From assembly GCA_045837725.1 (NCBI GenBank), contig JBEWZL010000294.1, forward strand, positions 1-64,000: 64,000 nucleotides of DNA. The letters run 5' to 3'. Both the position numbers and the translations under genes were made by a program. Below, piece by piece: positions 6,496 through 54,683 of this stretch. Within the stretch, counting starts at the first letter, position 1. Each line of letters begins with the position of its first letter. Below the pieces are notes generated by a model. The model did no database searches. It saw only the letters and a list, made by a program, of their open reading frames with translations, and was not told where the DNA came from. Source of the stretch: Vermamoeba vermiformis. Taxonomy: Eukaryota.

Positions 6496-6496
6496 A

Positions 6497-27175: not shown

Positions 27176-29205
27176 ATGCAATGGTTTATTTATGATTGCT
27201 GGTTAAATAAATTGCTAGTATGTACGCTTATATGTTTGTGCTTGCTATTCTCCAGATCCAACGCTGCATTAATTATCCGCGGAGAAAGTAGAATTGCTGG
27301 CACGTATGAAACGGCTCAGATATTCTTTGATGGTATATAACTGCGATTAATATGTTAACCATTAGCTAACGCAAAGTATTTTAGGCCTAAATGAGGATAT
27401 GGGAATCATAGACGGAGAGACAATTTTTTTTGGATCTGATGCAACAGATGTGCGCAATAAAATAGCAATATCAATGCTCAGAATACCTCCAGAGGATTTT
27501 GTCCGAGACATTCAAGCACGAGGAGCCAAAGCCTTAATTATGACGGGCAATCCAGGTAAAAAACGTTACAAAAGTTTGAAGGTTAAGAGACAGCTAATTT
27601 TCTCGCTATTATGGTAATTAATTACGTAATTTAGTACGTTTCGATTTCATTGAACCATCACGGTTCAATTTATCCGTATACTTATTGTTCCGGAAACAAA
27701 ACACCTTCATGTTTATGATTATCTCCTTCTTAAACTAGCTAATCTTTGAAAAATCGATCCTGACGTGCAGTTTACTTATGTATAGATCGTAAATTTTACA
27801 TTAATCAATTGAGCGTTGCTTTGAGCGGGAAATCTCGGTTACATCTACTAACCTATTCTTAGGCACACCTGGATACATTATGCTTAGTACTGATAACGGC
27901 AATACTTCGGATATCACTATGCCAATGGCTGAATTATCGAAGGAAGATTGGGATTTAATTGGAGATCAGATTCGACAACAAAGTTTCAACGTCACATTAA
28001 CAGGCGAAGGTAATGATTCTGTTTTTTAAAAATTATTCGATTTATTGCCGTATATTAATAATAACATTGCAATTTATCGTTCATAACGAACTTTCGAGAC
28101 ACACAAAATTTCTTTAAACTCGGAATTTGCCTAATAAGGAAAACTGGAAGTAATGCATTTATAGAGGGCAATAAATGGCTCAATATATCTCGAAGTCCAA
28201 CAATTATAGCTTTTCAAGCTGTCAGCGCTGCATTTACCCTCGTTTGCATTGCTTTGGCCATTGAAAAATTGGTGGCTTTTAATCGCAACGAGAAACCAAA
28301 CAGAGCTATTGTAGTGAACATCTGTCTTAGTCTCGAGATAGTAGGCTGTGCGCGTAAGTTCGTCTATCATTAACAAGCTCACCGGATAAATTGGATCTGT
28401 TGTGACACGTGTCAAACTAAACTTGTTTTTTTAGTCCGGTTAGTTGCTATAGCGGATCCACAAGGCATCAATAGAGTGTTCCCGAGAGTAGCTAATACTA
28501 TGCTATTGTTACTTCACTTTCCTTTCGCGCTCATCCCTGCAATTCTGTTGACGTTCTTCTGGTACGAAAAAAAAACGCTGGAATACTTTGACACGACATT
28601 TTTTGACACTTTTGACAGGTTAGAAGCGTTGAGCAATCAAAAAGTATTAGTTACAAAGCCTATTGAAAAGATGAAAGTGCCGTTGATAGTTTTGTGTGTT
28701 TTTTTGATCGTGTTAGAGCTGCTCACTGCGGGACTTAGATCATCCGACCTAGGCATCCAATATGAAATGAATATGACTATATTGGTAGTATACGCCGCCG
28801 TCTCACTAGGCCTATTGATATTTTACACAACTGTTGCGATCAAAGTGTTGATCCGGATCCACAAGTCCGAGGCTCGAAAACTCCGACTAAGAACCGTACG
28901 TATTCATAACTCCGTTAGAAATTTATTATAATGCCTATATTAATTGTTTTTATCTGCAGATTATGACAAGAATGTTGGCTACAGCAGTAGCGTTACTACT
29001 CTTCATAATTGTTATGGTCGCGTCGTACAATCTCATTCTGGCCCCACTCACGTTCGCCATATACATCTTTTTGTTCTTCATGTTCGTCGATTTGATAGTA
29101 TTGTGCACTATATTGACGTTCATGCCGAGAAGTAGCAACGATTCAACGACTGGTCCGGCAAGTACCGGATCGAGCGGTACTACAATGGCTCAAGTCAAGA
29201 TTTGA
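27176..29205 (+). CDS. PA-domain multi-pass membrane protein (receptor-like)
   Basis: Signal peptide; IQARGAKALIM and ITMPMAELS (PA domain); about 6-7 hydrophobic helices; Ser/Thr tail. Confidence 0.7.
28403..28414. promoter_or_regulatory. Intronic palindrome TGACACGTGTCA (copy 1 of 6)
   Basis: Perfect palindrome inside intron 28354-28434; function unknown. Confidence 0.6.
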
Positions 29206-29349
29206 TGTATCAGCTTCTCATTGTATAGTATTTATTTAAAATCATTTAGCAATAGCGAGCAAGCAATTCCAAATAAAAAATACCCGTGTACTACATCCGG
29301 TACGCTCAAAAATTAAATCCTAGAAAATGTATGGCGGTAAGGTAGATAT

Positions 29350-31798
29350 TTATTTACTACCGTTTAAGAAAGGATATGTGGCGAACATTCTTTGAATAGT
29401 CGCTAATCGCTGTTGAACGTCGTACGTTTCGGTCTCCAACTCGATCAGATCTTCTTTCAATTGTTGTTTGTAGACCTTCGTCTTAAGCTTATTCGCGTTC
29501 ATATTCAAGGTGTATATGAGAATAATAAGACGTCCAAAGTCGTCAAACTCCAATGGCAATGTGTACGATTTGTGATCTAGCGACAAAGTTGCTTTTCGTT
29601 GGTTGTTATTTCGGTTCAATAATATTGAAACTTCTCTTAATGTGGCTCTAATATTCTTATAGACGTCTCTATTAGAATCAGGTCTATTGAATAAGAGTCG
29701 ATTTACTCCCCAAGCGAAGAGCACTGCAGGAATAGTTGCCAAGAATTGAAAATTGACTTCATTCGCTTTGAGCAACTTGTCAATAGCCTTCATGGCCTTT
29801 TCAACATCGGCTATAGTATAATTATGTTATTATTTTCGTTTTAAGTATTTCGTAGAAAAGGAGCCGGTACCTTTCTGTTTTTGAACTTGGATCAGAAGCA
29901 GTCGCGAAAATTCTCCGAAGACAGCGTTCTTCAATGGACTAGCGATCTCCTTTTCATAATCGACCATAATACTGATGAATTAATTAAGCATTAGTCGTCG
30001 CGTACTGGAATTTCCAAAAAAGGAAAATTTTACCTAGTGATGTCTCCGTTTCGCGCTGCTTCTTCAATACGCATTAACTCGACTTGACCGAGGTTTGGAT
30101 TATGTTCTTTAACGTAATCAACGACCATATGACCTATCGAAGTAAATTAATTTTCGACCATAAATTTTATTAATTTTATTACCCAATGAGCGCACGCTAC
30201 TTTCAACACTTTCATCGCTAATAAGTCCCAGCTATATAAATAGTCATTAATAAGTTCGATATCGGCTATTATCTTTTTTCTTACCGTGGTATTGTCGTAG
30301 CGAATTACGTTCCAAATATTCCTCATTGGCGTTACAATATGCTCCGTAAATAAGCGCCATAGCGCCTCTCGTGCATCAGTCACCAACTAAATAATGTTAA
30401 TTACATGAGACTATCAAAAATACTCGAAACGTAAAATAGATCTGATGTTTTTTTGCTATGCAATCGTTGTACTCACAGTAGTAATACTGCTCCAGTTACC
30501 ATATCCATATCTAGCTACGAAAAATGCAGCTGTAATACCACCAGCGAAATAGATCCAATTTCTTGAAGTCTTAGGTGGAACACCTAGAAAAATGAGATCA
30601 GATCCGGTCTGATAGGAAATCAATTCGCCCATCAAAAGCTTACCTAATCTTTTTAGATATATATATGACTCATCGACGAAACTTCGAGTGGCAGCCAAGT
30701 TGTCTTTGACCATTGTAAACAATCCTTCGACTTTGATGACATCATCAGGAATTTCATCGAAATTTTCTTCAGGCATAATCGATTCGCGCAGTTCAGTCGT
30801 TTGTTCTTTGCGTTTCAACGGCGTTTTAACGATTTTTTCGAATTCTTCGAAGAACCGCATACTGTGTTTGAGCAGGTGATGAAGGTAGGCTTGTAGCGTC
30901 ATGTAATTTTTGCAGTTCATGAATGACAGCAAGTAATAAGTGCCTCCTAACATTTGCGCGCTAATCTAAAAATAAAAAAAAGTCAAAATAAAGTCAAAAC
31001 TGCGTCACGAAAACGGATCCCGAAAAAAATCAATGTTATGTCAACCATAATAATACTAATATAACAACTAATAAATAGATAAATAATATTTATACTTACA
31101 GTTTCAATCTCCTTCAATCTCGCCAATCTGTATTCAAGTTCTCGGCGTGGATGCACTCGTTTGTGCAAGTAAGCGTATTGATACCAGTAAATTGGCGTCT
31201 TCTCAATTAAATACCAATATCTATATGCATATCTTCTATATTCCCAAAATCGAATGCTTTCCTCGACTATGAAATAAAAGAAAAAGTTTTCATTAATCAG
31301 ATCTACGTGTCAAATGCGGTGAATTCACTTACTTTTGCTTGATTGAATAATTATCTGGTTCATAATAAGCTCATTTTGTAATATAACTATGTGAGCGAGT
31401 AAGTACAGTTTGGCAAGCTGGATGTCCTTGTCATCTGCTGTCTGTGTCTAAGAATGCATGAATATTAATAATAATATTTTTATTAAATTAAACATAATAT
31501 AATAATATGCTATATAAACCTAATAAGATAAAATGAGGACTTTGCAATTTTAAAAAATCATTTGTCGATCAGATTGCAAAACAAAACTTACTTGCATCAC
31601 GGCTGATAATTTATTCACTGTGTTCTCTAAAAATTCTAGCGATATTTTATCCGAATTCCTAGTAACAGGCTCGATACATTCCACGAGCAACTTGGCTGGT
31701 GGATCTTCTCTGGCAGTAAATTTATCCCACCACCTATGCGGCAGGATCTCATCTACTTTGTTGATCGCTCCATATATTTTAGAGCGTAGTGTATACAT
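29350..31798 (-). CDS. NCA2: NCA2/DGS1 family mitochondrial outer-membrane protein
   Basis: [39 protein letters not shown]. Confidence 0.85.
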
Positions 31799-32024
31799 CT
31801 TGACTCTTTAATTATGAAATGAAAATTGTTGCGTTGTCGAAACTTGGCGACGATGTAGAATCGCCAGAAATTTCCTTTGGAAGCCAAATAAGACTAAACC
31901 TGATAAGTAAAATAGTTTGGCTTCATACATTATGAATTGTTGAGGATACTAAGCAAAAGTAGGTTCGCGCATAAAAGAACGGATGCTCCCAGGCAAACAT
32001 TTTAATTAAACCTTAAATCGGTTC

Positions 32025-34573
32025 TTATTTGCTCAAGACAGGATCAAACATGTTACGAATAACAGAGTGGTAGAACGAGCGGTTGTCTTTGTACACACGA
32101 ACTGCTTGTTGGTGATCCACTTCGTGCAAAGCCTACATCCACGTCATCCATTAGTTCCAACCCACGAATAAAATAACACATGTTTTGTGGTACTTACGCG
32201 GTACATAGGGCGCACGTAGAGACCTCTGCCGTGCTTAGACAAGAAGTTAGCGACGACAGGGAAGATCGACTTGTCGTTGGACTTGAGGCACAACATGATC
32301 CAACGGAACAAAATCTCCACGTTGTTTGAGGCCGAGAGACCGTACAAGTTGTCGAGCTTGCGCAACAGATCGTGTTGCATGGGCATAGCTACATCACTAT
32401 GTTAATACTGACTTAGTATAAGCCGTGCAAAGACGTACCAGTAGCGAGCAAAGTGTCCAAGAAGTACATGGTTTGCTTGGCCTGGAACTTCTTCAAATCA
32501 TCGGCAGTAGTGCCGTTGCCGCCTTCTTCACGCCACTTCTTAGCGAGAGCGAGGCAGTTCTCAGCCAATGACTTGTCAAATACTTCACGAGGCTAGAGCA
32601 CGCGTTAGAGGCGTGTGAGGTACGTCAAATTAAGTTACTTACGTCAAAGCTAGGGAGACCAGGAGCAGTGAGCCAATGATCCCAATCAATCTTCTTCAAG
32701 ACATCCGGGCTAACCTTGTGTTCCTCGCTGCTGAAGTAGTTCAAGAAATGTTCCTTCATTTGCTCAGTGGTAACACTGCCGCGCTTGAAGGTGTTGAAGT
32801 ACTTGTTCAACCACTTTTGCATGACTTGCTTGCCACCTGCAACCGGTGTCAGATCCAAATTTGACACGTGTCAAACTGCGACTTACCGACTAAAGTCTCC
32901 AAGTAGAACAAGAACAAGCTGCCCTTCTCGTAAGGAATCTTAGAGAAGACCTCATCAGGGTCAATGCCGTTCATGTTGGGCTGCAACTTGGTCCATTCGC
33001 TGTCAGCACCAAAGTCAGCAACAGTCTTCATCAAGTCGTTGTAACCAATCATGGCCTCAAAGTGTCTGTAAGGTTCGGAGTTGTGAAGTTCACCAAGGAT
33101 CATACGTTCAATGTACACGGTGAAACCTGAACAAGACGTTAATCAAACTGTAACTGCACAAGATCTATTTGGATCGCGGACCTTCGTTCAACCAGAAATC
33201 TTTCCACGAGGCATTAGTGACGAGATTTCCAGACCAACTGTGAGCAATTTCATGCGCAACGACGTTGGTCAATGAACGGTCACCAGCCAACAAAGAGCGA
33301 CTCAAGAAAGTCAACTGCGCAAGGTGGTCAGTTTCGACGAATGATATATCGTGTAATGCGTACCTGAGGGTTCTCCATGCCTCCGTAAGGGAAGGCACCG
33401 GGCAGTACGACAAGATCATAAGCACCCCACTCGTAAGGAATGCCAGTGATCTTTTCACCAGCCTTGATGAACTTCTCAGTGTCCTCAGAGAACTCGTGAA
33501 CACAAGCGTCCAAAAGCTCTTTCTCGGTCCAAACTGTTGAACGAGGACCCACAGGGGCCTTCTTTAAAGCTGTCATATTATTAGAACTAAAACTAACGAA
33601 TTTTTGTTTTTTTGAGCGGATTTGGCTTCAGAATTCTATTTGCTTTAGTTTGCTTACCTCCTGCTACGATGGCGATAAGATAGGCAGGAATGGGCATAGC
33701 TTGTTTGTACTCCCAAGACAACCAGCCATCCTCTTCGAAGATCGGACCTTCGCGTACTGGAGTTCCAGAGCACGCGACTACGAGAGGGCTAGGGACTGAG
33801 ACCTTAATAGTATAAGGCGACTTGACTATATAAGAACGGTTAATATTATATCATTATTTGGTTGTAGAGAGAAATTTCGAAGGTAGAAAGGTGAGATCGC
33901 GTGATTTTACCTGAAGGCGTGTCTTGGCAAGGCAACAAGGTACGGGCGAGAATAGCCTCGCATTGAGTATATACGTACGGGTGCTTCTTGCCATCGGTTT
34001 GTTGAGGCTCGAACCATTGAATACCACCAGATTCAGGAGTGGTCGAGTAGCGAATCTGTATCTTGACTGTATTGCCTTTAGTTCTCTTGTCTGCAGGCAA
34101 AGGTACTCGCACGCAAAAACCAAGGTGTTCGTGGTTCTTGGGGATAGTCCACAACAACGAGTTGCCGCTGTCCAGATCAATGACTCTGCAGAGAAAAAAT
34201 TTCAATTAATTTTATAAGACCCACAATAATTACTATAATTATGAAATCGTCATTGATATAATAATTCAATATTATTTCAGCAATTGGGGATTTTGATATT
34301 ATTTTTCAAAGGTAGAATTGGAAAAATCTTTCAGATCGAAGCCTTAATCCTGATATAATTAATGAACGATAATTACTTTTCGATAGCCAATGACTTTGCG
34401 TCGAGAAGCATTTCTGAAGCATCTTCGAGAAGATCAGCTTCCAAGTTCACGTGGCCATGGAAGATCTTTCGATGGAAGTCCACACGAACATCAATGTGAA
34501 TGTGCTTCACACGCACTTGCTTGTTGTTCGAGTAAGAGTGAGGATCGACGCCGAGAGGTGTTTGATCAGCCAT
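32025..34573 (-). CDS. LTA4H: Leukotriene A4 hydrolase-like M1 aminopeptidase
   Basis: [36 protein letters not shown]...WLNEG, PYEKG. Confidence 0.95.
32860..32875. promoter_or_regulatory. Intronic palindrome TTTGACACGTGTCAAA
   Basis: 16-bp palindrome in an LTA4H intron. Confidence 0.6.
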
Positions 34574-36520: not shown

Positions 36521-36639
36521 TAGTGTTTCTCTTCTGGCTGCCAAAAAAGATTAAGATCTATCTTTAGCATCCGTAAGAAAATTGTTTGGAGGTTTCCACC
36601 GGCAACAATTTTAATGAAACACAATAGCGCAACACAATC

Positions 36640-39600
36640 ATGACTAGTTTACGAATTAATTTTATCGAGGAATACGGATCTGATTACGGTTATGATGGGA
36701 AAATAGATGCACTCAGAAAGGAGGAGTTTGGAAGAGTCGAAGGTAATTTTAAAATTTATTGTATATATATTTATACATTTTACGCGAGTAGTAGGTACAA
36801 GAAACTTCCTTCACATCCAAAAATAATTTTTCTAATTTCTGATCCAATTAATAATTCACGGCTGGACCGTTTATCAATCAAAGGCATATCAAATATATAA
36901 TTATGATTATTAGGAGTATATTTGGATAATGCCGGAGCTGCTCTTTACTCTGACAGTCAGATGCGTCATTTTCTTGAAACTATGCAGAAAAATGTCTTTG
37001 GAAATCCTCGTAAGTGGCAGCAAACAGTTATTTATATTGATCTCTATTTAATATGATCGCCTATTTAACTGAAAAATTCATAGACAGCCTGAATCCGACC
37101 AGTACACGAACAACTAACGAAGTGGATGCGATTCGCGAACAAATTTTGAATTATTTTAATACAAATTCGAAAGAATACTCGCTTATATTTACATCAGGTA
37201 TGAATTCAGCAAAATAATCGGCGTTAGAAATACGATCCAGAGGACCTCAAACCGGATCTTGCTTAGTTACATCAATTTATTAACCTCGTATTATTAAGGC
37301 GCTACTGCAAGCTTAAAATTAATCGGAGAATATTTTGATTGGTCCAGCCAAAGCCAATTTAGCTATTTAACAGAAAGTTGTCATAATTCCGTAATCGGCA
37401 TCCGAGAGTACGTCTCGCTAACTATTCTTTTATTAATATAATAGTATTAATTATTCAAATATAGATATGTTTTAGAAAAGGGAGGCAGTTTTAAGCCAAT
37501 TTCATTTGAGGAGATTGAACGGCAGATTGAAAAAGAAAATTCCGTTACAAATGATGACTTTATCAGCAATAATTCCAAGAATAACAGTAACAATAGCAGC
37601 AATAATAATATCAACAATATAAGCCGAAGTAATAGTCAACCGAATACACCAAGAAATATTGCGGCAGTAGTTCCGGCACCTCCGCAAAAGGTAAATAATT
37701 TGTTTGCCTTTCCTGCCCAATGCAACTTCAGCGGCAGGAAATTTCCGATGTCAATGATCGAGTACTTTCAACACTCAAAGGTCCTTAATCAAAACGGAAG
37801 GTACGTCCGAGCAAAATTTTTTTCACCACATCCGGATCCAAATTAGGACCAATTGGTTTACGGAGATAATTAATATATTTTTGTATTTCTAGGAATTGGA
37901 AGGTCTTATTAGACGCCTCATCATTAGTTAGCACGTCAAAGTTAGATCTGAAAAAATACACGCCTGATTTTGTAGTGCTATCTTTTTACAAAATGTTCGG
38001 ATTTCCTACGGGCATTGGAGCTCTAATAGTCAAAAATGGTAAGTATTACCTTATTTGGAAAAATAGTGCCTAACTTATGTAGATTCAACGGACACCTTGA
38101 AAAAGAAATATTTTGGCGGAGGAACTGTTGCAACGACTCTGAGCGGAGAAAATTACAAAGTATTTCGAGAAAATATTTCTGCAAAGTTTGAAGACGGCAC
38201 GATTGATTTTTTAAACATTATTGCGCTGCGGAAAGGCATCGAAACTATTTGCGAGTTGGGCATCGATAAAATATCAAGGTAACTTATCAAAATCAATATA
38301 ATAATCAAATATTCTGCAAATATTACTTTTTTTATGGCTCGCGTCATTTTTTCACGGTGACACTTTGACACGTGTCAAGAATTTTTTCACGTGTCAAACT
38401 CAAGCTTTTGTGATTAACGATTACTTCATTTTTAGACATACATTTGCACTATCGAGATATTTATATACGTCTTTAATGGATTTACGACACGCTAATGGCA
38501 GTCCCGTTTGCGTCGTGTACGGTGTAAATAATCACTTCAAAAGTCACGAAACACAAGTACGTATATCATTATTAATACCATATTCTATTAAACACTAACG
38601 TATATTTGACGTATTATAGGGACCTATTATCAGTTTCAATCTGCTGAATCCAAATCTTGAGTACGTGGGCTACGGTGAAGTTGAAAGATTGGCCGCCATA
38701 AACAACATTAGTATTAGAGTATGTACCGTTAAATTTATCAAATTTATTATAGCCCTGACCTACTATCTATAGACGGGATGTTTTTGCAATCCAGGCGCGT
38801 GTCAACATTATTTGGACTTGTCAAATGAGCGGATCAAGAAAAATTTTCTGGAGTTCGGTCACGTGTGCTGGGACCAACACGACATTATTGAAGGCATGCC
38901 CACTGGTGCTGTTAGAGTATCAGTACCTTATTTTGCGACCTTCGAAGATGTCCATGTAAGTTGGATCTGGTAAAATCCAAATTAGGAAAACTTGCTAATC
39001 TTCATTCACTGAACCAGATTTTCATTGAATTCATCAAAAAGTACTTTGTGTCGAGCAAAGAGGCCATAACACCTCGTTCTATGGCTCAACAAACATCGAC
39101 TGATATAACTTTGGAGAAAATTATTCTTTATCCGATCAAATCTTGCGAGGGCATGGAAGTCGATGAATGGGAAATTTCCGAAGAAGGTTCGTTATTGACT
39201 TAGTTTCATGAAGCTTGGAAATTTAATGAATATATTTCTAGGTCTACTTTATGATCGCGAGTGGTCGCTAATAGACGACAGTGGCGCGTACATTAATCAA
39301 AAAAAATTGCCGCAATTATGTTTTATTCGCCCGCACATCGATCTCGAAAGCGGAATAGTGACCGTATCTGCACCGGATATGCCTAATTTGGTAATTCCGT
39401 TGAACGAGAACCCCGAAGACGTACTCACGGTGCGAGTTTGTGGCGACACGTGAGTGACTTTTAATCTTTGCAATAATTTATTGACTCTATTTTTAGATGC
39501 ACGGCGATGGCCTATAAAGGTGAAATCAAAGATTGGTTCACGAAATTTTGTGGCAAGTCAGTGACACTCGTCAGACAACGCACGACTGAAAATGACACGC

Positions 39601-40277
39601 GTCACTTGTCACAACGAAGAATGAAACAATTGCACGTGGAAAATAATGGCAATGTTAGCACGACACCGAGGGAAGAACCAAAAATGGAAATTGCGCCGAA
39701 AATTTCTTTCGTGAACGAAGGCCAATTTTTGGTCATAAATCAGGCTTCGATTGATGAACTTAACGAGAAATTGAAAGAAAAACAGTTGGAAGATCCAAAT
39801 GTCAAATTAGTGACATATGTCAATTTCAGGTACGCACAGAAACCTTGAAAAATTTTTGCAAAGTTTTGACTTTTTCTTTTTAGGCCAAATTTGGTAATCA
39901 GATCAACTGAACCGTACAATGAAGATCAATGGCAAGCGATTAAAATAGACGAACAGTACCTCGGATCTGTTGGGCCGTGCAACAGATGTCAAATGATTTG
40001 CATTAACACGAACACTGGTACTTTTCAACAAGAGCCTTTATTAACACTATCAAATTATCGGCGCGATAAGGTAAGTCACCGCTACTATAACATTTATGTA
40101 CCTTGCATTTTTGTGTAAATTTTTTAATTCAAACCCTAACCCTAGATCCAAAACCTGTTTTTACTAACAAGAGAATAGGGCCGTATATTGTTTGGCTCCC
40201 TATTCATTCATTTGCGAGACAAATCAGCGCAGCCGTTCAAATTGAAAACAAAATCAAAAATTGAAGTTGTATCATAA
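36640..40277 (+). CDS. MOCOS: Molybdenum cofactor sulfurase (NifS-like PLP domain plus MOSC)
   Basis: [56 protein letters not shown]. Confidence 0.95.
38365..38378. promoter_or_regulatory. Intronic palindrome TTGACACGTGTCAA
   Basis: In a MOCOS intron, with a partial copy at 38388-38398. Confidence 0.6.
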
Positions 40278-42721: not shown

Positions 42722-44064
42722 TTAGATTCGCGAATCCAGATGTGGATTTAGACTTACCAAATCGCCAGTACAAAATTGCTGCTTTCCTCCCAATCTATTG
42801 AACTCGGAATTGAAGTAGCTGCTCCATTCAGTCGAAAAAACTGTCAAGGGATTGACCGCCAGAATAGTCTCACCCGGGTGGTTGTTGACATTGTTATCCT
42901 TAAGCAACGATGTTGGTACAGGTCTATCACATAACATGTTAATATAGGTCTCGGTCTAAATACACTCATATGATTTCTACTTGCCTAACTTGCAAAGGAA
43001 GTCCTTCTTTGCCTACGCGACCGACGATCTGACCGAGGTACGCTTGATCACCTCTTTGTACTGACACAGTCTTCAATCGCCCGTAAATGACGTACCAAGG
43101 ACCACAACGAACAATAACACTATAATTAATATAATGAGCCTTCGTGCTTGCTATAAAAAAAGGTTTTAAAAAAGTTAGCGTACCTGCGCCCAGCTCCAAA
43201 AGGCGAGTTGTCTCCAGCGTGAACGATTTGACCACCACACGACGCAATTGCAACGTCATTTTCATCGGCAATGAATTCGAGCCATGGATTCATTCCCTAA
43301 GAACAGACACGCAACCTCGCGATTAGCATGACACGTGTCAAGTAATTTTTGAAAGAATCGTGTCTACGTACCTGTGATGCTCTGAACTGAGCATTGTTCG
43401 CACGTGCAATGCGCGTGTCACCGTAGAACTGTCGCACTTGACGCTGTGTTGGCAAAGGCAGCAGTGTCAAAGTACGTCCTTCGTTTATGTTGGGAAGTGG
43501 AGTTGAAGGCACGGTACCGCATGATTTCAAGAACTGCTTCGATGTCCATCCAACGTATGATTGGTATCTATGATAAGGTATTATATAATGGCTCGTTACA
43601 AACAAATTATCAATCGAGATCTCGCAAAATGTAGGCACGATATTTTGACGGATATTTTAATTTCTGAACTATCATATAATTTAATACATTGTATGCCAAT
43701 GTATTATTTGTCGTCGAAATGATAGAAAAAAGATAATTACTAATTTTTTAAATTATTAAATAATTTTTAGCTTTCTTACTTGACATTTCGCCAGATAATT
43801 CCTTCAGCTGTAATTTGAGCATTTAAATCTTCTAATTTAGTTCCATCTCTAACGCAAATCTATATTGATACTCCGCAATTAATAATTTGATCTATTATTA
43901 GTTTTTTCGAGTTTGCAACGCACCAATGACTGTCCAGAGATTGATGCTTCACTTCTAATGCGCAAACAGCTACCAGTATTAGTTACGCAGAAAAGTTGTT
44001 GCTGAGCTACAGCTTGAAGGACTAAACCGAAGAGACAAACCAAGCCGACCGAGATCTGCATCAT
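42722..44064 (-). CDS. Secreted SH3b plus degenerate M23 peptidase-like protein
   Basis: Signal peptide; LRIRSEAS...WRNVKYQSYVGWTSKQFL (SH3b); QFYG...AIASCGGQIV...VIYGRL...VQRGDQAYLGQIVGRVG (M23 fold). Confidence 0.75.
43329..43340. promoter_or_regulatory. Intronic palindrome TGACACGTGTCA
   Basis: In an intron of the SH3b-M23 gene. Confidence 0.6.
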
Positions 44065-44657
44065 CAAAATTGGACTTGGATTGTGGTTCTATTGTCCTCT
44101 AGTAAATTTATAAAATGAGCAGATTGCGCCGCATCAAGCTGATTTTCGGACAAGAAATTTTGATTGTGACACTTTGACACGCTGCTTGACAACGAGCCTT
44201 GACAGCTTTGCAATGTGAAGATGAGACAAGATCTAACTGTGTTCGAGATCATTAGTCAGATGCAGGACTGAACCGCATTAATCTTCGTTGTGGTCTCCCT
44301 CAATAGCTCCCAAGGTCTCAAATCATCATGGAAGGTTCTAGATCCATTGCTAATAATGCAACTTTAGGTCAACGAATATGAGAGTATCAACTTCTGTATC
44401 AAAAAATGAACCAGAATCTTGACTCACGATAGCCAAGGAAGATCCGGATCAACTTCGTCCAGATCCCAACGTCCAATACAGCGTTCTATTAATTGCGGTA
44501 CTAGAGTGATCCCTTGATCAATACAACCACGTAGAAGAACGCTTGGCCCTAGCGAGGAGAAGATAACGCTAGAAATTTGAACCGGTCGGAAAAGATAAAA
44601 ATAAATCAATTTGACACATTTGTTCTTTTAAATTACGCTCTTGACCACAACAAAGCG

Positions 44658-47213
44658 ATGTATATTAAATCCATCGTATTGTCTGTTATTGTTGCATTAG
44701 GCTTTGTGGCTCTAGTTAGCGCTCAGCTGCCATTCAATAACTTTGGCTCGGCGACTGTCTCGCCTAAGCAATGGCAGTACTATACTTTCTCCGTTCAAGG
44801 TCTTAAAGAAGGTGATATGCTCATTGCTGATGTTTCAGACACCACAAATACCGACATCCAATTATTTGCTCAATTCGATCGTGAACCAACTGCTGATGAT
44901 TTCTGGCGCTTTGCTTACTATCAACCTATTAGCAACGATGCTTTTGAAAGAGTTTTTGGTAGGCCTTATAATTTTAGATAATCGCTGGATGTCTTTTTTG
45001 TATTTTCAAGATCCGTTAAAATTGACAGACATATTTCATTAGCAAATCTAATGCCCTTACCGCGCATTACATTAAACGTACTTAATTTAATAATTATTTA
45101 TAGCCGTCGTATTCAATGGAGAACTTGTCAGCACTCCTCAAAACGCATCCACAATCGTTTTTGGCGTCTACAATAACCACGATAGTACCCCTGCTACAAT
45201 CAGCTACCACTTCTATAGCAGAGGTAAGTCCTACAATATAAATCAAATCAGCGCTTTGCGCATCCACATACGGTGGATCTCTGAAATTGAAATTGCAATG
45301 ATTTCGAACTAAATTGCATAATGTCGTTATTATTATGATCCCGCTGTGACATTAAATGAATTAAATATTATCCGACTCATCAAGCTTCAAATAAAGAAGC
45401 TACCAGCAAGTCACAAAATCCGCAAAATATTTACGTACATCCGTTTAGGTCTGATCGACGTTATCATTGGTGAGACTCGTATTGTCCATTTAGAAGAAAG
45501 CCAGTATCAATTCTTCCGCTACACCATTGACGAAGGAACTGCTACTGCTGGAAACTACTTGCTTCGAATTGAGACCGTTGCTGTTACTGGCGACGTTATC
45601 GTAAGTCCTTAATAATATACAATTTATAATACTATACCTATACTTTCGTATCCAACTAACTCTTTTTTTTAGTCCTTCAGAGGTCGCAACCAATTTCCGA
45701 TCGGCATTCCCTCCATCGGTAAGCAATAATATCTGATGTAATATTGCTAAATATAACCACTGTATTAATGTAATGACTAGGATTTACTTACGGCATTCCT
45801 GCTGTCGATGAGCCCGGAATCTCGTACATCGGTTTGACGTCAGATCTTCAACCCGGCACTGAGTACGCAGGTGTTGCTAGCTTGGATCCTCCTGGTGGTG
45901 TTGAAGACGAAAGCACCGACGTTGCGATGTCATTTAGCTATGCCCGTAAGTCTCCAATAGAACCAAAGAAATATACCTCAGATCCGTGTTGACACGTGTC
46001 AACTGACATGTCACTTTTTTCTTGCTGCAGAAAGCTACAACATCCCTGTCAGCCCTGACACCACTTTCATTCAAACCTACGATTTGCTTCCCAACAGCTG
46101 GTTGTATTTGACCGTGCCTACTGGTGGTGCCAACCAAGTCTTGGTCGTTGAAACTATCACTCCTGGTCCCTTGATGTTGCCCTTGATTCGCGTACGATAA
46201 TCTTATCATAACTATGCCTATTAGTTCACTTAACTAAATGATATTGTTCTTAGAATGGTGGATTCCCTTCTGCGCTCTATCACGACGGCTGGGCCCAACG
46301 CACTATATTGCGCCAATTGGATTCAGCCAACACTCCCCAATTCACCTTCAGAGCAATCAGCGAGCCCATTACCACCGCCAATACTGTTGTTGGATACCTC
46401 AACACCGGTACGTACTAAGAAAACTTCATCAAAAGATCGCATCTGACCTCGATCCAGACACCGTTGAGATTTACGCCACATTGGTTGCTCACTACGCTCT
46501 CGTTCGTGAAGTTCGCCTCGGTGATTCTTTTGACAACGAGTTCTTGAACACTAGTGGCATGTGGCGCTTCTATCAATTCCAATCCGGTGAATCTGGCAAG
46601 GACGCGTTGTTGTCTATCAGACTCAGCCCTTCTGCTGGCCACAGCGACATCTTCTACTTCATTGGTGGATTCCCCACTCGAGAGCAGGTATGTAAACATA
46701 ATTTAAAACGATGCAAAAGTTACCGTTGGAAAGCTCATCGAACCTCGTTTAACACCACATCCAGAACTTGCCTTGGTACTCCGCCCAAACTACTGATGGC
46801 TCCAGTGAACGTACTGTGACCATTGGCTTGACTCTTAACACGATCTATACCATTGGTGTGCTCGCTAGCGATCAATTGGGCTCATCGACCTTCTCCATCT
46901 CGTTCAACAGAGCTACCCGCCCCGAAGCTTCGACTACTAACGACAATGTCTCGACCGCACTCGTGGTAGTAGTTGTTATTTTGGGCTGCACCACTGCTGT
47001 TGGTATCATTGCTGTTATTGTGTTGGCTGTTCAACGGGTAAGCTACATCCAACTCAGTCTGCCTTTCGCCTTTCGCTAAAATTATAGAAAAAATATCTTT
47101 CGTGATTATGCACGTGCATGGATACTAATATGCACTTATTGTAGAAAAAGGAACAAGCTGCTCTTGCATCCGGTGAAGGTCCTAACTACACCAAGTTGGT
47201 TGATAACGAATAA
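44658..47213 (+). CDS. Type I membrane protein with repeated PPC-like beta-sandwich domains
   Basis: Signal peptide; repeated (W/Y)Q(Y/F)(Y/F) units with FDREPT/GGFPT; transmembrane segment; tail ending YTKL. Confidence 0.75.
45988..46003. promoter_or_regulatory. Intronic palindrome GTTGACACGTGTCAAC
   Basis: 16-bp palindrome followed by TGACATGTCA in the same intron. Confidence 0.6.
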
Positions 47214-48217
47214 GCTGACCCTTGCCTATTGTCGCATTCTTAAGACCACGTAATCTATCTATAAAAATTTTGCTATTATTAGAGCTCTCGTGTCCGTGGG
47301 TTTGGTATTTTTGATCAAATGTCCCTTTCTGCAACACAACCGATCCCACCCACTATTTCGAGGAACGGCGATCAAAGTATATTTTAGACATATACCCGAG
47401 ATTATGATTTGAGTACCATCGCTTTCGCACGTCAGTGTATGGCCAGTTACAAGATGCAGAACAATTTTTATCTTATAACACCATCAGCTTTTGCAAATCC
47501 AAAATAGAGATTAAGACATGCGATAATACGCTCGATTAGGACATATTTTTTGTTCGAATTTACGTGGCTCTTCGCAGTTTAATTTGATCAGCGCAGGTCG
47601 AGGTCTGCCTACAACGTGCACGCTTCTCAAGGTACAGTACTACATATATTACACTGGCGGTACATGTATTCACCTGTACTAACGTATTAAATTCGCACTT
47701 AGTGACATTTGATCGCGTGTGTACCTTCCAATTCGCCAGTTGTTAGGCCTTCGAGCTGACGCTTCTTGAACTACTAGTAGTGATGCACTACCATCATAAT
47801 ATATAATGCCGCGAAAGAAGCGACATTAATCATGCACCGAGCTTGCGGCGGGCATTGTCCGACGCCATCTGAAACCACAGGATCACAGCGGGGAAATGCC
47901 GGTAAAGTTCAAAACAGGTACGTACACCCCTGAAATGTCGAAATTATACTCACGGACATAGCAAGGAAATATCGCGGGTAAAGGGACTTATCTTCTTGTA
48001 TTCATACTCCCACGGACAGAGTTTTTCCTTTTTAGGAGTGTTACAGACAATTTTAGGTTCAGTGTCCGTGTCCTTGAGCTCCCTAAATATCTACTTGTCA
48101 CGTTGCCTTCTAGGTTGTTAAATAGAATTTTGTTTTTGGTTCTTTTTCATTACTAATTCAGACCAGATCCAACGCCCCTCGAGCCTCTTTTTACCTCCCC
48201 TCCCCCTTCACACTACC

Positions 48218-49367
48218 ATGGTTCAAGCAAGTGCAGCTTCTCGTAGCATTACTCGACAACAATACGAAGAAGGCATCGTTACTCTTCGAGACTCAGTCAG
48301 GTCAAATGCGTTGAAATACAAGTGGCTACATTTGGTTGCTTGGGAGCTGGCAGAAAATTCTTGGGAGCTCTTTGGAAACCTTAGAGAGTCTAGCTGCTGC
48401 GATAAAGACGGGCTTAGACTATGGATCAACAATTTTGTTAACAAGTAAGTTGAAAATTTAGGTTTTACTTTTTACTCCGGATCAACAACGGAACAACTTT
48501 AAATTGAATGTCGTTAATTAATTTATACAAAGAAACCGTATTATTTACTAATCACGTTATTATAGTGCGATTGGATTTCAATTGCCGACTAGAGAATTTA
48601 TGCTGTATCTGCTTTTGATCTCGTTCACAAAAGTAGAATCCAACAGAGGTCGCAGAAAAGGCGCTGCTACTATTAGGCGCACTTCGGAAATTTTCTTCTT
48701 TGATGCCGCAGAAGAGGACAAGCGCTTACAACGAGTGCTATGGAATCTGCGAAAGTACTTCCACGTCGAGATTGCGGACTCAGAAGTTAATGGCTTGACT
48801 ACTATTCATCATGAACGCTTCGCTACAGTTTCTGATTGGAGCGACGATGGCCAGGTCACGAGATTTCTAAATTCAATCCGACCTTCGAACAATACTGGCG
48901 GTGAAAGCCCGAAGAGCAACAAAAAGAGCAGAGTTGGAAGAAAGCCTAAGAGCCCTAAGCAAACTAAAGGAAAGAACGCGATCAAGCCTGAGCCTTCTTG
49001 GAGTTCAGATTCAGAACCGGATGTCTCGTACTTTAGTTCCGAAGAGTCTTACTCGCATGAGGCCGCTGCAGGCGCCGCGGCATATACTGCGCAGTCATCG
49101 GACTCTATGGCTATCGAAGGCTACGAGAACCGAGCAGGATCTAATTTTAGCATCAACGAATCCGTTCAATTTGCGCAGGAATTCATGCTTGCGCCTCCTC
49201 GCACGTTCAACTTTGAAGAAGTTCTGCAATATAGCATTTCAAGGCTGCATCAAGTCTGGTCAACCAATGAGCCTGAGCGCATCCAAAGCTACCTCGACCA
49301 TTTGGACGCATTTTTTAATCCTGCATCCGCTTCTGCCAACGTCTACGCAGAAAATTTTCCTTATTAA
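48218..49367 (+). CDS. Hypothetical protein, paralog of 54969-56041
   Basis: Two exons joined by a phase-2 intron; basic and Ser-rich segments. Confidence 0.75.
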
Positions 49368-50186
49368 TAGATTTAACGTTTAGTTGACGTTGAAACTATT
49401 AATCTTGTATTATATGTATATAAACGCGCTACTGTATATTAACATTTATCTTGCGTTGCTGTACTTTTGCAAAGCTATCAATTTACTCTAATTAAATGTT
49501 AATATTAGAGCGAGGAAGGCGCATAATCACCGCGAGGAGATCACCCGCCACGCAAACCATGTAAAGTGGACAATTTCACCAACATTTGAATTTCCACACC
49601 ACTCGCCACACCACTGCGCACAAATTACGACAGCAACAACATCTGACGCTTGGTCATCACTAACAGAAATGATCCTGTATTGCTGTTTCGTGCAGCCGCT
49701 AATGTTCATCCGCTGTTGTTGTAGTTTCTTCGACGCTATTTGAAAAGTCCGTCTCATCTCGTTGCCCATGCAAGGCAAGGTAGTGTTGACATTAAAGGAA
49801 CTGGGGACTAATAAGCGGAAGTATGTTACGCTGTAGTAAAGAATCCAATACGTTGTTGTATCCAGATCATGAAAGTTCAGGATCTGACCGGCGCTTGTGA
49901 TGCAGACTTCAGGACTTATTCTTGATCAACTCGCTTTCCAAGCTCAAGAGGCTAATGTGGAAAGCGAATCGTTGCATTAAATTAGAAGTGGACCTTTCCA
50001 ATGATTTTTTCAAAGGCAGCGAATTTATTTGTGTACGTTTTTACACGCCGTGATGCCACAACTCCTTTATCAAATCGAAATCAAAACGGGCATTATGCTC
50101 ATAACGTATAATACTTCTGCAATAGTCAAAGAGGCGTAGCGCTGTCGATTTGATTCAGTTTTGCCGAGCCATTGCAAAGGAGAAAA

Positions 50187-51387
50187 ATGTATCGCGGCTC
50201 TCAGCCAAACTTGAAGTCGAACCAAAGAATTATTTATTTTTGGGTAAATATTATAATCACGATTTTCGATTTAAAATAGCTAAATTGTCCGTTAATAAGC
50301 AAAAATAAAATTCTAATAATTATTTTTATTTTGCAGGACATTGAAAGCTGTTCAATCCCTCGTGGATATAATGCAAGTGAAATAGTAAAAAATATACGAA
50401 CTATAATAGGCCAGGGCAAGAGAGTTATCGTTCACTTGTTTTATGGATGTAACTCAAGTCCCTAAAGAAGTCACCGAGGACTTATATTTCGCTAATATTA
50501 CCATGAACCACGTGCCTAATCAGTAAGCTATTATTAATATAATATCACCCGGCTAATTTAGTTTAGCAAACCAGGAGCAATAGATCAAAAAATTGCGTTA
50601 GAATTAGTGCAGCTCAAAGAGTACTTTCAGCATGATAATACCACTGTCGTATTAATATCGGGCGATATTGATTTCGTGCAGCCGTTACAACGCTTAAAAA
50701 ACGACGGCTTTGATATCCTTATCGTTCATAATCACCAAGCCAAAAAACAACTGATTTCAGTTGCGGACAAAGCTTTCCTTTGGGACGATATTAAACAAGT
50801 AATAGAACGGGCATATGAATTCGTAGGCTAGAATATTAATAACTATTTTAGGGACGGCAAAACCACTCGGTCAACGAAAAGTCAAACATCCCGAAAAAGA
50901 CTTACGTTTGCTCAGAATGCAACAGTACATTTGATTCTGAAGCGGCCTTGCAGCAACATAGATCAGCGAAGCATATTCACAGATGCTCTACGTGCAACAG
51001 AACTTTCAAAACGGATGGGGCTCTGCAGCAACATGTCGATGCCAAGCACAGCTGGGATTGTGACGTGTGCGGAGAAGTTTGTGTTACCGAAGATAATTGG
51101 GAAGAGCACAACAATGATATGTCTCATTGGGCTTGTACAAAGTGCGACGAGACTTTTAGTAGCCCTGGTACTTGGCGAACCACGAAAATCTTTACGGTCA
51201 TCAGCCCTCAAATGGAGAAAGCGACGAAGAATTAGAAGAGCAAGAAGAGTCGTATTATAGTGGTTCGGACTCCAGCAATGAATATGACTCTGAAGGTAGT
51301 GGATACGGATGCAACTACTGCGATCGAGTTTTTGGTTCTGAAAGAGCATTGCAACAACACCAAAACGATACTGGCCATTATTATTAG
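50187..51387 (+). pseudogene. NYN (MARF1/LabA-like) RNase plus C2H2 zinc fingers with two frameshifts
   Basis: YFW|DIESC, KPGAIDQKI, LISGDIDF and C2H2 repeats; frame breaks near 50415 and 51170. Confidence 0.75.
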
Positions 51388-52286
51388 AACTAAGTCGAAA
51401 ATTATGACGCTATTGGGCAGATCTAGTGTGTCGTTAGTCATCGCTTTCAGCATGATCAGTAAACAATTATTTTTCAGGATCCGTAAGCTTAATTGTTGCT
51501 TGACAACCTACTAAATTCAAACAGATCAATAAGCATTACACGGGAAGATAAAATCTACAAATTCGGACGTTTGTTTTTGTGGCCAGCGATTTGCGGTCTC
51601 GCGAACCTGACTTTGGCAGCCTTGGTGATATCGAAGGTAATCATCATAATGATATTATTAGGATATGATCAGTACATATCTCACGCCTATTATGCAGTTG
51701 TAGGGCCGCGTGGCATTTTTTTTGTTACTAGAGGCAGTGGCAGTGCTCCAAACACCCCTTATCGAACGAGTTTGCCAATTGGCTAGTTTTATTCTAACGC
51801 TTGTACATTCGAAAGCAGTTTCAGACCCTGGACGGATCGAACGGCGATTTATTTATTTCTTGAATCGAAGCGATGTTCGTAATGAATCACAAAGCGAATT
51901 CTTACACCAGCAACCGGATCAAAAAAACGACAATTGAATCATTATGGAATTCCGTTAACATCAGCGTAGTGTAGATAGGTATGTGGTAATACTATTTAAT
52001 GATTTCGGTTGTAATTTACGATTGATCCAGAAATCTTTGTGAGCTTTTGGTGCGGCACTCTCGCTAGATCTCGCTCAAAACAAGTACGCTACTCCAAAAA
52101 AGGTAAATATATCGCGGTATAGTGTGATTAGATCGCAATATTAAAATCTAAAAGATTCCATGGTAATGAAATGAGTCAAATTTCGGTGCGGCAAAAACTT
52201 ATAAATTCTAACTGAAGCTAAGCTCATTCTAATAATTCCAATTAATAGCAATACAACGCTACTAATAATACCTAGTCAACCAGTCT

Positions 52287-54683
52287 ATGATTCGACAACT
52301 TCTTTTGATTTCAGTGTTGGCTGCGCTACTCGCCTGCGCATCTGCTGGTTTTCAACTGACCTTCAGCGAAGAGTTCAATGGCCAATATAAGCTGAATACT
52401 ACTCTCTGGAATACTTTCTATCATTTCGCACCATCTACGATCAACGGCGAACTGCAGTACTACTCACCGGATTCGTTCAGTTTTGGTTCTTCGTACCTCC
52501 GCATCATTGGCGAACGCCGAACTGTTAATGGCTTTAATTATACATCAGGGGCTATTACTACTAAGGATCGCTGGTCCCAAGCTTTCGGCTACTTCGAGAT
52601 GCGCGCCAGATTTCCAACGGGCAAAGGACTTTGGCCTGCCTTTTGGTTATTGCCTCAAAACGCAGCTGGAGGTACGTTATTAACATACTTTATTATGATT
52701 ATATTATTAAATTGTTGAAATCTATATTTGGAATCGAAATTTATGCGTAACAGTGTGACACGTGTCAAATTTCCCGTGGTTCATGAATTAGCGATAAAAA
52801 GATTCTTCATTTCAATTAATTGTTCCGTTTATTTACTTCTAGGAGGCATAATTGAGATCGACATCATCGAGTCATTGCAACAAAACCCCGAAAAGGCGTA
52901 TTTGACCTATCACTGCAATTCTACCTACACGGCGTACGGCACGTATTCATCCGCGGCACTGGCAGACGGTAGTTGGCACACGTACAGCGTGGAATGGACT
53001 CCGAACATTATCATCTGGTACATCGACGGCGTGGCTCGTTTTAACGTCACTCAATGCGTGCCAAACCTGCCCACGTACATCTTGGCCAATATGGCTATCG
53101 GAGGCTGGCCCGGCCCTCCAAATGCCACGACGCCGTTCCCTAACTACATGGACATCGATTACATTCGTGCGTACAAGTACGTGTCATCTGGAGGCTCGTA
53201 CTTGACTGGTCCTGGCAACGGTATTGCCTACTCAAATCCGACCATTGCCGCGGCTCCACGTGTCACTTTGAACTATCCTGTTGTTGTGCCCGAGACCGTC
53301 ACTGCAGGCAGTACCGTGCAGCTTCAAGTAACGATTATTGCTGGCGGATCCGGCCTCTCAAACAGCATCCTGTCGTACAGCATTTATTACCACGGCAACA
53401 ATACACAGATCGCTACCGGCTCTACAACAGGCATTACAATAGCGGCAGGCTCGTCTAAAGCATTTACGTTCAATGTGGCCTTGTCTTCAAGCATAGCCAA
53501 TGGATATTATCGTGTGGCTTATGGCGTGTTCGACTCTTCTTGGAACAATTTGTACTGGCAGAATGCAGCGACAGTCTTCGGAGTCAATGCAATCGTTGGG
53601 GGCCGCGGAGAAGAAGGCTGGCAATTGACTTTTGCCGAAGAATTCAATTCGCAGACTGCTCTGAACTCGTCAGTTTGGAACAATTTCTATCACTACGGAC
53701 CTAAATCTGTCAACTCCGAGCTTCAATTCTACGCACCAGATGCCTTTAGCTATGGATCGAGCGCAAATTTGCGCATTGCAGCTCAACAGCGTGCTACGTA
53801 CGGCTACAACGACACGTCAGGTGTCATCACGACGAAAAATTTCTTCACGCAGACTTACGGCTACTTTGAAATCCGAGCGAGATTTCCTTCGGGCAAAGGC
53901 TTCAATCCGATCTTCAAATTGGCCAGTCAAGACACGACTAAAGGCAACTCGATCAACATTGCGAATAATATTGGCGATCAGAAATCAGTCACGATGTCAG
54001 TCACGTGCGCGTCATCCTCGACGTATTCTAGTACCTATTCTAACGTGAGTTTGGCTGACGGAAGCTTCCATACTTATGGTCTGCAATGGACTTCTACGGC
54101 ATTGACTTGGTACATTGACGGCGTGGTCAGATCCACGACCTCTTCGTGCTTGCCGAACAACCCGTTGTACCTGATTGCCAGCATGGCTGTCGGCGGAATA
54201 ACTGCGGGAAATCCTACCATTAACACCACGTTCCCTTCGTACTACGAAATCGATTACATTCGTGCGTACAAATACGTCGCATCCAACGGCATCGTTCTTG
54301 ATGGACCTAATCGTGGTGCTTCATTTACTCCGGCAAGTGCTGCTTTACCTACTATAACACTTCAAAATCCTGTTGCTGCTCCGTACAATGTTTCTCGTGG
54401 ATCTACATTGCAATTGAACGTGACCGTCTTGGTCGGTGGATCTGGTCTCAGCAATGCTAAATTTGGACCAAAAATTGTTCACACTAGTGACGCCACGTCA
54501 GTCACTTCATTAATTCAGACTGGTGTTACGGTCACCGCTAGTCAAACGAAACAATTCTCGTTCAGTTGGAGCGTGCCATCAACTTTGGAGACTGGTTATT
54601 ATACTGTCGGATATACCGCGGCTGATTCAAGCGGAAATACTATATTTTCAGAAAATAGCGACACTTTAGTATTCGTAAAATAA
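52287..54683 (+). CDS. Secreted tandem GH16 beta-glucanase (GH16-Ig-GH16-Ig)
   Basis: FSEEFNG, GYFEMRA, GLWPAFWLL, EIDIIE, WHTYSVEW, IDYIRAY; the whole module is duplicated; intron 52672-52842. Confidence 0.93.
52756..52767. promoter_or_regulatory. Intronic palindrome TGACACGTGTCA
   Basis: In the single GH16 intron. Confidence 0.6.

Follow-up and report, generated by a model that had tools for sequence, protein, structure and literature searches.

Pairs of inverted TGACA half-sites, set 2 bp apart and flanked by TT/AA, form perfect palindromes of 12-16 bp that are described for TALE homeodomain proteins of the TGIF, MEIS and PREP types. The TGIF1 homeodomain has been crystallised as two monomers on one such palindrome, ATTGACAGCTGTCAAT (PMC6158717), and TALE homeobox genes have been reported from Amoebozoa (PMC6219170). 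A CACGTG/ACGT core is described for the plant bZIP/bHLH G-box and the palindromic ABRE GACACGTGTC. Introners and MITE-derived introns, found in algae, fungi and dinoflagellates, are alike along their entire length, bring or recruit splice sites and are accompanied by target duplications. The STAT sites of Dictyostelium read 'TTGA'. Lastly, a 16-bp palindrome, TTTGACACGTGTCAAA, is highly iterated in a group of uncultivated tailed phages, where it is perfectly kept at many places in one genome and fills the 20-30 nt gaps directly before start codons.

Copies of the palindrome and their host introns

The window, by which we mean the whole 64-kb stretch of Vermamoeba vermiformis DNA analysed here, holds six exact copies of the perfect 12-bp palindrome TGACACGTGTCA; exact search recovered each of them where the initial annotation had placed it (Table 1). 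No copy arose in any of 100 dinucleotide-preserving shuffles of the window, which bears out the earlier claim of a count far above expectation, and the frequency of the 12-mer is too high for chance. The top canonical 12-mer family of the window consists of GACACGTGTCAA (9 copies) and TGACACGTGTCA (6 copies). All six copies read TGACA-CG-TGTCA, with two TGACA half-sites in inverted orientation around a 2-bp centre; three extend to 14-16 bp, as had been claimed, and the core continues into a weaker 20-bp dyad, ARTTTGACACGTGTCAAAYT. A single one-mismatch version occurs in the window, and 24 bits kept perfectly in six of six copies exceeds typical eukaryotic factor sites, which weighs against a binding site of that kind.

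Table 1. Palindrome copies and related half-site arrangements in the window
Feature	Position	Location	Sequence details
Copy 1	28403..28414	predicted intron 28354-28434, + strand gene without assigned family	GGATCT at 28393-28398
Copy 2	32862..32873	50-nt intron 32837-32886, - strand LTA4H-like M1 peptidase gene	16-bp palindrome; 20/20 match to extended consensus; AGATCC at 32851-32856
Copy 3	38366..38377	intron 38279-38435, + strand MOCOS-like gene	14-bp palindrome; TGACAC at 38358
Copy 4	43329..43340	intron 43297-43371, - strand gene, weak M23 peptidase match	inverted GACACG ... CGTGTC at flanks
Copy 5	45990..46001	intron 45946-46030, + strand gene	16-bp palindrome GTTGACACGTGTCAAC; TGACATGTCA at 46004-46013; AGATCC at 45980-45985
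Copy 6	52756..52767	sole intron 52672-52842 of + strand GH16 glucanase gene	19/20 match to extended consensus
Three TGAC-N4-GTCA near-palindromes	39562..39822	coding exon, MOCOS-like gene	TGACACTCGTCA, TGACACGCGTCA, TGACATATGTCA
Five TTGAC/GTCAA half-sites	7151..7198	~420-460 nt upstream of ATG, gene 7615-9429	
Three TTGAC half-sites	44174..44203	gap between divergent genes starting 44064 (-) and 44658 (+)	
Three direct TTGAC(A) half-sites	28588..28616	in-frame 57-nt stretch 28562-28618, possible intron	GTACGA...GACAG

Introns make up 21% of the window on our crude gene map, and placement of all six perfect copies within them has P ~8e-5 against all DNA and P = 0.013 against non-coding DNA. 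None lies in an exon or in the retroelement, in agreement with the initial annotation, and intergenic DNA, roughly equal in amount to introns, likewise holds none. The compartment map behind these counts came from a gene finder of our own, which found 15 of the 19 introns used as reference (five of these 19 having been set by inspection), and was then corrected by hand. An ordinary transcription-factor site would not account for the restriction of the perfect copies to introns.

The host introns are short and spliceosomal, and they belong to six neighbouring genes on both strands, with one perfect copy per gene. These genes are unrelated, as had been proposed: they comprise an M1/LTA4H peptidase, a class-V aminotransferase/MOCOS-like gene, a gene with a weak M23 peptidase match, a GH16 gene and two without an assigned family. 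Outside evidence is available for five of the introns, while that of site 1 was picked by the gene finder from sequence alone (GTAAGT...TTTTTTAG, with frames open on both sides). At site 2, the junction is continuous in P0121, a transcript-derived protein that is 84% identical (...YLETVVGGKEAMQKW), and the closest matches to the LTA4H exon of the window are amoebozoan transcriptomes. An X5 contig links 38275 to 38434 at site 3, and an RNA-derived X5 contig omits the 85-nt GT..AG intron of site 5, joining 45945 to 46031. At site 4, 3 X21 and 7 X23 reads exit the window at 43298 and re-enter it at 43406; the 32 letters in between do not resemble it. This pattern is compatible with the intron in Table 1 plus a diverged exon. 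At site 6, the spliced relative P0174 runs across the junction (...LPQDTASGGITEIDVLE), and the exons on both sides match GH16. In RNA-seq runs under the same species label, most reads (269 of 312 in one case, 506 of 577 in another) were only 90-95% alike, and these runs gave few clean joints and no information on transcripts beginning within introns.

Introners likewise appear as a repeated sequence inside many unrelated introns, and the initial annotation had offered the footprint of an intron-generating element, whose insertion would have made these introns and which the palindrome would mark, as one explanation. We consider this highly improbable. The solely intronic location is in its favour, as is the GH16 gene: a search with its protein returned relatives at 79% and 58% and, beyond three close ones, mostly bacterial or metagenomic sequences, so that the gene probably acquired its single intron following a transfer. 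A metagenome scan with the same protein returned distant bacterial-type relatives alone (21-37% identity), the 79% and 58% relatives being absent, and yielded no orthologous DNA. However, the six introns have only the block of 12-22 nt in common, the block lies at no constant distance from either splice site, the exon flanks carry no duplications, and neither full-length likeness nor splice-site carriage is seen here. Recent gain could be examined at site 6, where the intron proved to be present in the relative rather than absent. It occupies the same codon position in the relative of 58% protein identity (P0174 compared with the genomic read-through P0003) and is thus older than any recent insertion; its last 81 bases in P0003 have no similarity to the site 6 intron of the window. 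The lack of target duplications, terminal repeats and a fixed splice-site distance, together with the shared site 6 intron, argues against an intron-making element, and this part of the initial annotation is not supported. Among the papers covered by our search, none reported introners for Amoebozoa.

Placement within genes, RNA folding and short repeats

The sites follow one another at even intervals of ~4.9 kb (P = 0.014 for a CV as low and P = 0.009 for a smallest gap as large, against random intron positions). They are not close to gene starts: predicted ATGs lie 469 to 1726 nt away, the host introns rank from first to sixth in their genes, and a promoter-proximal reading was rejected because the sites are deep within gene bodies. 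Measured from the 5' splice site, the palindrome stands at 13-87 nt; its distance to the 3' splice site is 20-75 nt. In the four short introns, 20-32 nt separate the end of the block from the 3' splice site, and CTRAY-like branch candidates follow shortly after the block. A branch-site reading was ruled out, as a CTRAY-like candidate distinct from the block lies downstream of it in every short intron.

Since the site is a palindrome, transcription of either strand yields the same RNA word, UGACACGUGUCA; present in every host pre-mRNA, it might be bound by a factor for splicing or intron retention, or might base-pair inside a transcript or from one transcript to another. Such an RNA-level element, which we regard as improbable, agrees with the exclusively intronic perfect copies, with the indifference to strand and with the narrow 3' placement in the four short introns. 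It also agrees with the structure of the site 3 intron, where a second, imperfect copy (TTTCACGTGTCA, 38385-38396) pairs with the first as an 11-bp stem (z = -2.11). The other five introns are no stabler than their shuffles (z = 0.95, -0.25, -0.85, 0.12 and 0.11 for sites 1, 2, 4, 5 and 6), the palindrome's own hairpin has 4-8 bp, and an Rfam search of the whole window gave no family match. Distances to both splice sites are variable, half-site clusters also occur in intergenic DNA and a centre variant in an exon, and symmetric flank conservation is a hallmark of double-stranded recognition. The stable fold and fixed splice-site distance of a structured intronic RNA element are not found here.

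We confirmed RGATCY beside three copies at the positions first noted (Table 1). GATC lies 4-7 nt from the box at three of the six sites, against an intron null rate of 0.048 (P = 0.002, post hoc), and also adjoins the partial copies at 22484, 31305 and 60619. As an intron signal GATC was rejected, since it exceeds expectation in all compartments (observed/expected ratios of 1.48 for exons, 1.99 for introns and 1.80 for intergenic DNA) and has no strand bias, so that only its proximity to three palindromes remains notable. At all three carrying sites it flanks the box on the left side of the + strand, though one host gene is on the - strand, and thus shows no tie to transcript direction. The partial copies reported at 22484, 28588, 31305 and 60619 are real as sequences; of their reported intron status, that of the last three is predicted, and 22484 lies in unannotatable DNA.

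In plants, the intron-mediated enhancement motif is TTNGATYTG, in promoter-proximal introns. TTGGATCTG adjoins sites 1 and 2, and TTNGATYTG occurs four times sense and twice antisense in predicted introns (0.9 expected per orientation), being equally common in exons and gaps. An enhancement signal of this kind was rejected, given no sense-restricted intron enrichment and a distance of 735-1726 nt from the ATG at five of the six sites.

It is unlikely, in our estimate, that the copies represent a dispersed repeat of very small size. Such a block, of 12-30 bp and perhaps including the nearby RGATCY, would have been copied into transcribed non-coding DNA by a mobile or repair-linked process; the copies could then be tiny MITE-like remnants or a leftover recombinase or transposase site. 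The copies are identical and single-mismatch forms are few, as this would predict, and sites 2 and 6 are alike at 21 of 22 letters after reverse-complementing one. The near-fixed distance of RGATCY at half of the sites, the GATC beside three partial copies, and a local 35-nt partial duplication at site 3, with several copies, point the same way. Against copying, the six sites lack both target-site duplications and terminal inverted repeats other than the palindrome itself, and similarity ends ~20 bp out, so the flanks are unrelated, as the initial annotation had stated. Moreover, a longer element decaying neutrally would not keep its core alone intact, and the site 6 intron is old.

A further observation first seemed to favour a dispersed repeat: X4 water-metagenome contigs stack on 38362-38397 at a depth of 22-27, versus ~3 nearby, with unlike flanks. 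Short metagenome matches call for caution, however, and the stack may be phage or bacterial; since the phages noted above iterate TTTGACACGTGTCAAA, the pile-up was downgraded and is no longer taken to prove that a relative carries a dispersed repeat. The phage 16-mer is identical to that of the window, but its bearers are bacterial viruses and its setting is that of start codons rather than introns; we see no evolutionary link and treat the match as coincidence. A prokaryote genome scan with the 16-mer returned 110 stretches, nearly all single, which is near chance by rough estimate, and a viral-contig scan with the retroelement polyprotein gave no match. The phage example shows that a palindrome of this sort can be strictly maintained as a signal in DNA.

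The dyad as a putative protein-binding site

In the window, TGAC-N4-GTCA occurs 10 times against 0.8 expected, and it is the sole enriched spacing among 0-12, the others numbering 0-3 each. Centre variants keep the outer TGACA/TGTCA (TGACATATGTCA at 39811; TGACATGTCA at 46004), and five clusters of TTGAC half-sites without the CACGTG core were found against 0.275 in 200 shuffles, two of them in promoter-like gaps. CACGTG is present in all six copies, yet its 29 occurrences spread across all compartments and it is missing from the related clusters and variants. Taken together, the variants and core-less clusters suggest that the outer half-sites may be read, rather than the E-box/G-box core; with these as the recognised part, centre variants are expected. 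The likeness to the plant ABRE, which has the same decamer in its described form, is thus set against half-site clusters that lack an ACGT core.

By likeness of site, the closest known element is the TGIF/MEIS TALE-homeodomain palindrome, which makes this a candidate family: TTGACACGTGTCAA is identical to the TGIF1 site ATTGACAGCTGTCAAT at 12 of 14 letters (PMC6158717). The two differ at the centre, CG here versus GC in the TGIF1 site. The sixth base is C in all six copies (TGACAC), versus G in TGACAG sites. Intron restriction and even spacing, both seen here, are not reported for the known TALE sites. No homeobox family matched among the scanned ORFs of the window.

Our tentative interpretation, held at somewhat less than even probability, is that the palindrome is a putative high-affinity site of a dimeric DNA-binding protein. 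The 12-mer would be the core of a 14-20 bp dyad (ARTTTGACAC joined to GTGTCAAAYT), which a sequence-specific homodimer would recognise in double-stranded form, with one TTGACA(C) half-site per monomer. At a guess, it may serve gene bodies as a mark for regulation or chromatin organisation. Perfect copies would persist in introns, as transcribed, non-coding DNA within a gene-dense region, and promoters may be served by looser half-site arrays. The initial annotation had likewise proposed sites for an abundant dimeric DNA-binding or chromatin factor, and this best fits our tests, namely the dyad to 20 bp, the one spacing, the core-less promoter clusters, the unoriented GATC, the ordinary folds and the TGIF1 match. 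What the analysis demonstrates is the build of the sequence, its enrichment, its place in introns and its regular spacing; the binding, the protein family and the consequence of binding are matters that we infer.

A more specialised, and doubtful, form of protein recognition would be a dedicated chromosomal signal of this amoebozoan lineage, a 14-20 bp site inside introns about once per gene, at ~5 kb intervals, read by a specialised dimeric factor such as a domesticated transposase or a homeodomain protein. It might act as a boundary within gene bodies, as an anchor for loops, as a site of replication licensing or as a promoter for small RNAs carried by introns, and would differ from an ordinary gene-specific enhancer.

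The cis-regulatory DNA of free-living amoebae other than Dictyostelium is almost unstudied, and our literature search found no report of this motif, nor of an intron-restricted palindrome, in amoebae. If the palindrome is a short mobile block, it is an unusually small one. If it is a real signal, an evenly spaced, once-per-gene intronic palindrome would be a handle on a major DNA-binding factor, and would permit a test of whether introns of gene-dense protist genomes are retained partly as housing for such sites.

Palindrome copies and their intron hosts

The window holds exactly six copies of the palindrome TGACACGTGTCA, at the starts claimed in the initial annotation (see table), and none of 100 dinucleotide-preserving shuffles contained any. 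The motif tops the lists of repeated 10-mers and 12-mers in this stretch, which is eukaryotic, has ~40% G+C and carries short GT..AG introns. Allowing up to two mismatches yielded 13 matches compared to 2.16 expected: the 6 perfect copies, 1 copy with a single mismatch (39593) and 6 with two. Other claims were upheld as well: three copies extend to palindromes of 14-16 bp, the hosts are unrelated genes, and the LTR retroelement of the window lacks the palindrome. The assertion that exons are free of it holds for perfect copies and fails for near-palindromes, three of which (TGACACTCGTCA, TGACACGCGTCA and TGACATATGTCA) lie in one coding exon of the MOCOS-like gene. An intron of that gene, ~1.2 kb upstream, houses site 3 with its several copies. 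The initial palindrome observation is confirmed for this one 64-kb window.

Compartments were mapped with a simple splice-aware gene finder that we wrote and hand-corrected from RNA joints. Of 19 reference introns, 5 of them set by inspection, it found 15. The map comprises 29,916 bases of coding exons, 117 introns totalling 13,290 bases (median 85 nt), 14,094 intergenic bases and 6,700 bases of LTR retroelement. On this crude map, the probability that all six perfect copies are intronic is 0.208^6 = 8e-5 relative to all DNA, and 0.485^6 = 0.013 relative to non-coding DNA only. These values are conservative because the map probably overstates introns. Avoidance of exons is partly trivial, since one reading frame of the palindrome contains TGA, and the preference for introns over intergenic DNA is suggestive, not proven.

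Features of the window and the evidence for each intron that hosts a perfect copy
Feature	Coordinates	Strand	Host or content	Evidence or remarks
Site 1	copy start 28403			Sequence-only basis: GTAAGT...TTTTTTAG between open frames
Site 2	copy start 32862	-	M1/LTA4H-like peptidase	Protein relative P0121 continuous over exon junction
Site 3	copy start 38366; 38275 joined to 38434	+	MOCOS-like gene	Junction in RNA-derived X5 contig
Site 4	copy start 43329; predicted intron 43297-43371	-	Weak M23 match	At 43298, on the acceptor side of the prediction, 3 + 7 reads from two diverged RNA runs depart from the window
Site 5	copy start 45990; intron 45946-46030			Skipped by RNA-derived X5 contig; GT..AG ends
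Site 6	copy start 52756	+	GH16 glucanase	Spliced protein relative P0174 continuous over exon junction; both flanking exons match GH16
Three near-palindromes	39562-39822 (within 260 nt)	+	Coding exon, MOSC-like part of MOCOS-like gene	
In-frame stretch, 57 nt	28562-28618		Three direct TTGAC(A) repeats	GTACGA...GACAG ends
Ty3/gypsy-type LTR retroelement	1-6657	-	Protease, RT, RNase H, integrase, gag zinc knuckle	LTR parts 1-154 and 6504-6657
Double GH16 beta-glucanase gene	52287-54683	+		Three close relatives: 97%, 79% and 58% identity

Of the 30 X5 contigs placed on the window, 21 are 95-99% alike. Between 33000 and 52999, identity to the window is mostly no higher than 90-95% in the RNA-seq runs that share the species label of the source DNA, and mostly 95-99% in contigs from an organism labelled otherwise; a species complex may be concealed behind these labels. 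At the site-6 intron, the genomic ORF P0003, from the same cluster as P0174, begins with 27 residues of intron read-through. The M1/LTA4H peptidase exon is 84% identical to a EukProt transcriptome protein, its closest match with an organism assigned being the amoebozoan Stenamoeba stenopodia (65%). On this basis we regard the source as an amoebozoan-like protist. The 57-nt in-frame stretch may be coding sequence or an intron, with its last TTGAC(A) repeat as candidate 3' splice site. The two LTR parts of the retroelement are 100% identical, so its insertion is probably recent. Past its three close relatives, the GH16 gene has matches of at most 51% identity, bacterial where named, making it a candidate for horizontal transfer that would since have gained one intron, common to the 58% relative.

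Dyad anatomy and spacing

Similarity extends beyond the core: site 2 and the reverse complement of site 6 are identical at 21 of 22 positions, and when all copies are aligned a weaker dyad of 20 bp emerges, ARTTTGACACGTGTCAAAYT, which site 2 fits at 20/20 and site 6 at 19/20. Among inverted TGAC...GTCA pairs with spacings of 0-12 bp, the 4-bp spacing alone is enriched (10 versus 0.8 expected; the others give 0-3). Four of these ten are non-canonical, one being unrelated (TGACCTTTGTCA at 16008) and the other three being the near-palindromes in the MOCOS-like exon. Clusters of TTGAC/GTCAA half-sites (at least 3 within 25 nt) number 5, compared to 0.275 in 200 shuffles, and two of them occupy promoter-like gaps (7151-7198 and 44174-44203) without the CACGTG core. 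RGATCY does accompany three sites, at 28393, 32851 and 45980, as first noted; GATC lies 4-7 nt from the box at 3/6 sites, where the null rate is 0.048 (post hoc P = 0.002), and is itself in excess in exons, introns and intergenic DNA (observed/expected 1.48, 1.99 and 1.80) with no strand bias.

The six sites fall in six different genes (by itself, P = 0.12), 469-1726 nt from the predicted ATG and in introns number 1 to 6. The central 24 kb contains all of them (P = 0.014, allowing for the distribution of intron bases). Successive gaps of 4459, 5504, 4963, 2661 and 6766 nt are more even than random intron positions would give (P = 0.014 for a CV as low; P = 0.009 for a smallest gap as large).

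RNA, mobile-element and phage comparisons

An element acting at the RNA level within introns is improbable: folds of the six host introns are unremarkable (z = 0.95, -0.25, -2.11, -0.85, 0.12 and 0.11) except at site 3, whose two copies pair with each other; scans of the window for Rfam families and tRNAs returned no matches; and the distance of the block from the splice sites varies, between 13 and 87 nt on the 5' side and between 20 and 75 nt on the 3' side. A very short dispersed repeat is somewhat less doubtful, though still unlikely. The suggestion that the palindrome is the footprint of an intron-generating element is not supported and is very improbable: neither target duplications nor terminal repeats were found at the six sites, and a relative with 58% protein identity has the site-6 intron as well, so that this intron, at least, does not owe its origin to a recent insertion.

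In IMG/VR, 25 stretches contain the 16-mer TTTGACACGTGTCAAA. Twelve loci (L019, L023, L026, L029, L032, L034-L039 and L041) have between 2 and 9 copies apiece, 59 altogether over 100.8 kb, and belong to uncultivated tailed phages encoding portal, large terminase, tail sheath and baseplate proteins. Their copies occupy intergenic gaps of 20-30 nt, and for 34 of the 59 an ORF of at least 60 codons opens with ATG no more than 25 nt downstream; the element resembles a promoter, operator or translation signal common to the whole phage group. In prokaryote genomes TTTGACACGTGTCAAA occurs in 110 stretches, near chance by a rough estimate. Contigs from three different Solirubrobacteraceae MAGs (L049, L078 and L096) each have two copies 29-33 nt apart, an arrangement resembling a conserved double operator. 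We saw no link between the phage 16-mer and the amoeba palindrome. Contigs from the water metagenome X4 pile up on 38362-38397 (depth 22-27 versus ~3) and may be phage or bacterial DNA; the presence of the 16-mer in phages weakens their value as a sign of a dispersed repeat.

A putative dyad binding site

Two monomers of the TGIF1 homeodomain have been crystallised on ATTGACAGCTGTCAAT; TTGACACGTGTCAA of the window matches that site at 12 of 14 letters, the sole difference being the central pair (PMC6158717). TALE homeobox genes are reported from Amoebozoa (PMC6219170). The decamer GACACGTGTC occurs in papers on plant G-box/ABRE sites, and the exact 12-mer, among the papers listed, only in two unrelated virology papers. 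Our literature searches yielded no pertinent account of introners, or of palindromes within introns, in amoebae.

On the evidence of this one 64-kb window, the palindrome is, tentatively, best read as a high-affinity dyad site for a putative dimeric DNA-binding protein, with a layout like that of TALE-homeodomain sites. An ordinary transcription-factor model leaves unexplained the restriction of perfect copies to introns, their perfect conservation and their even spacing; these features leave room for bolder, less probable readings. The phage case illustrates that the very same palindrome can serve as a strictly conserved DNA signal.
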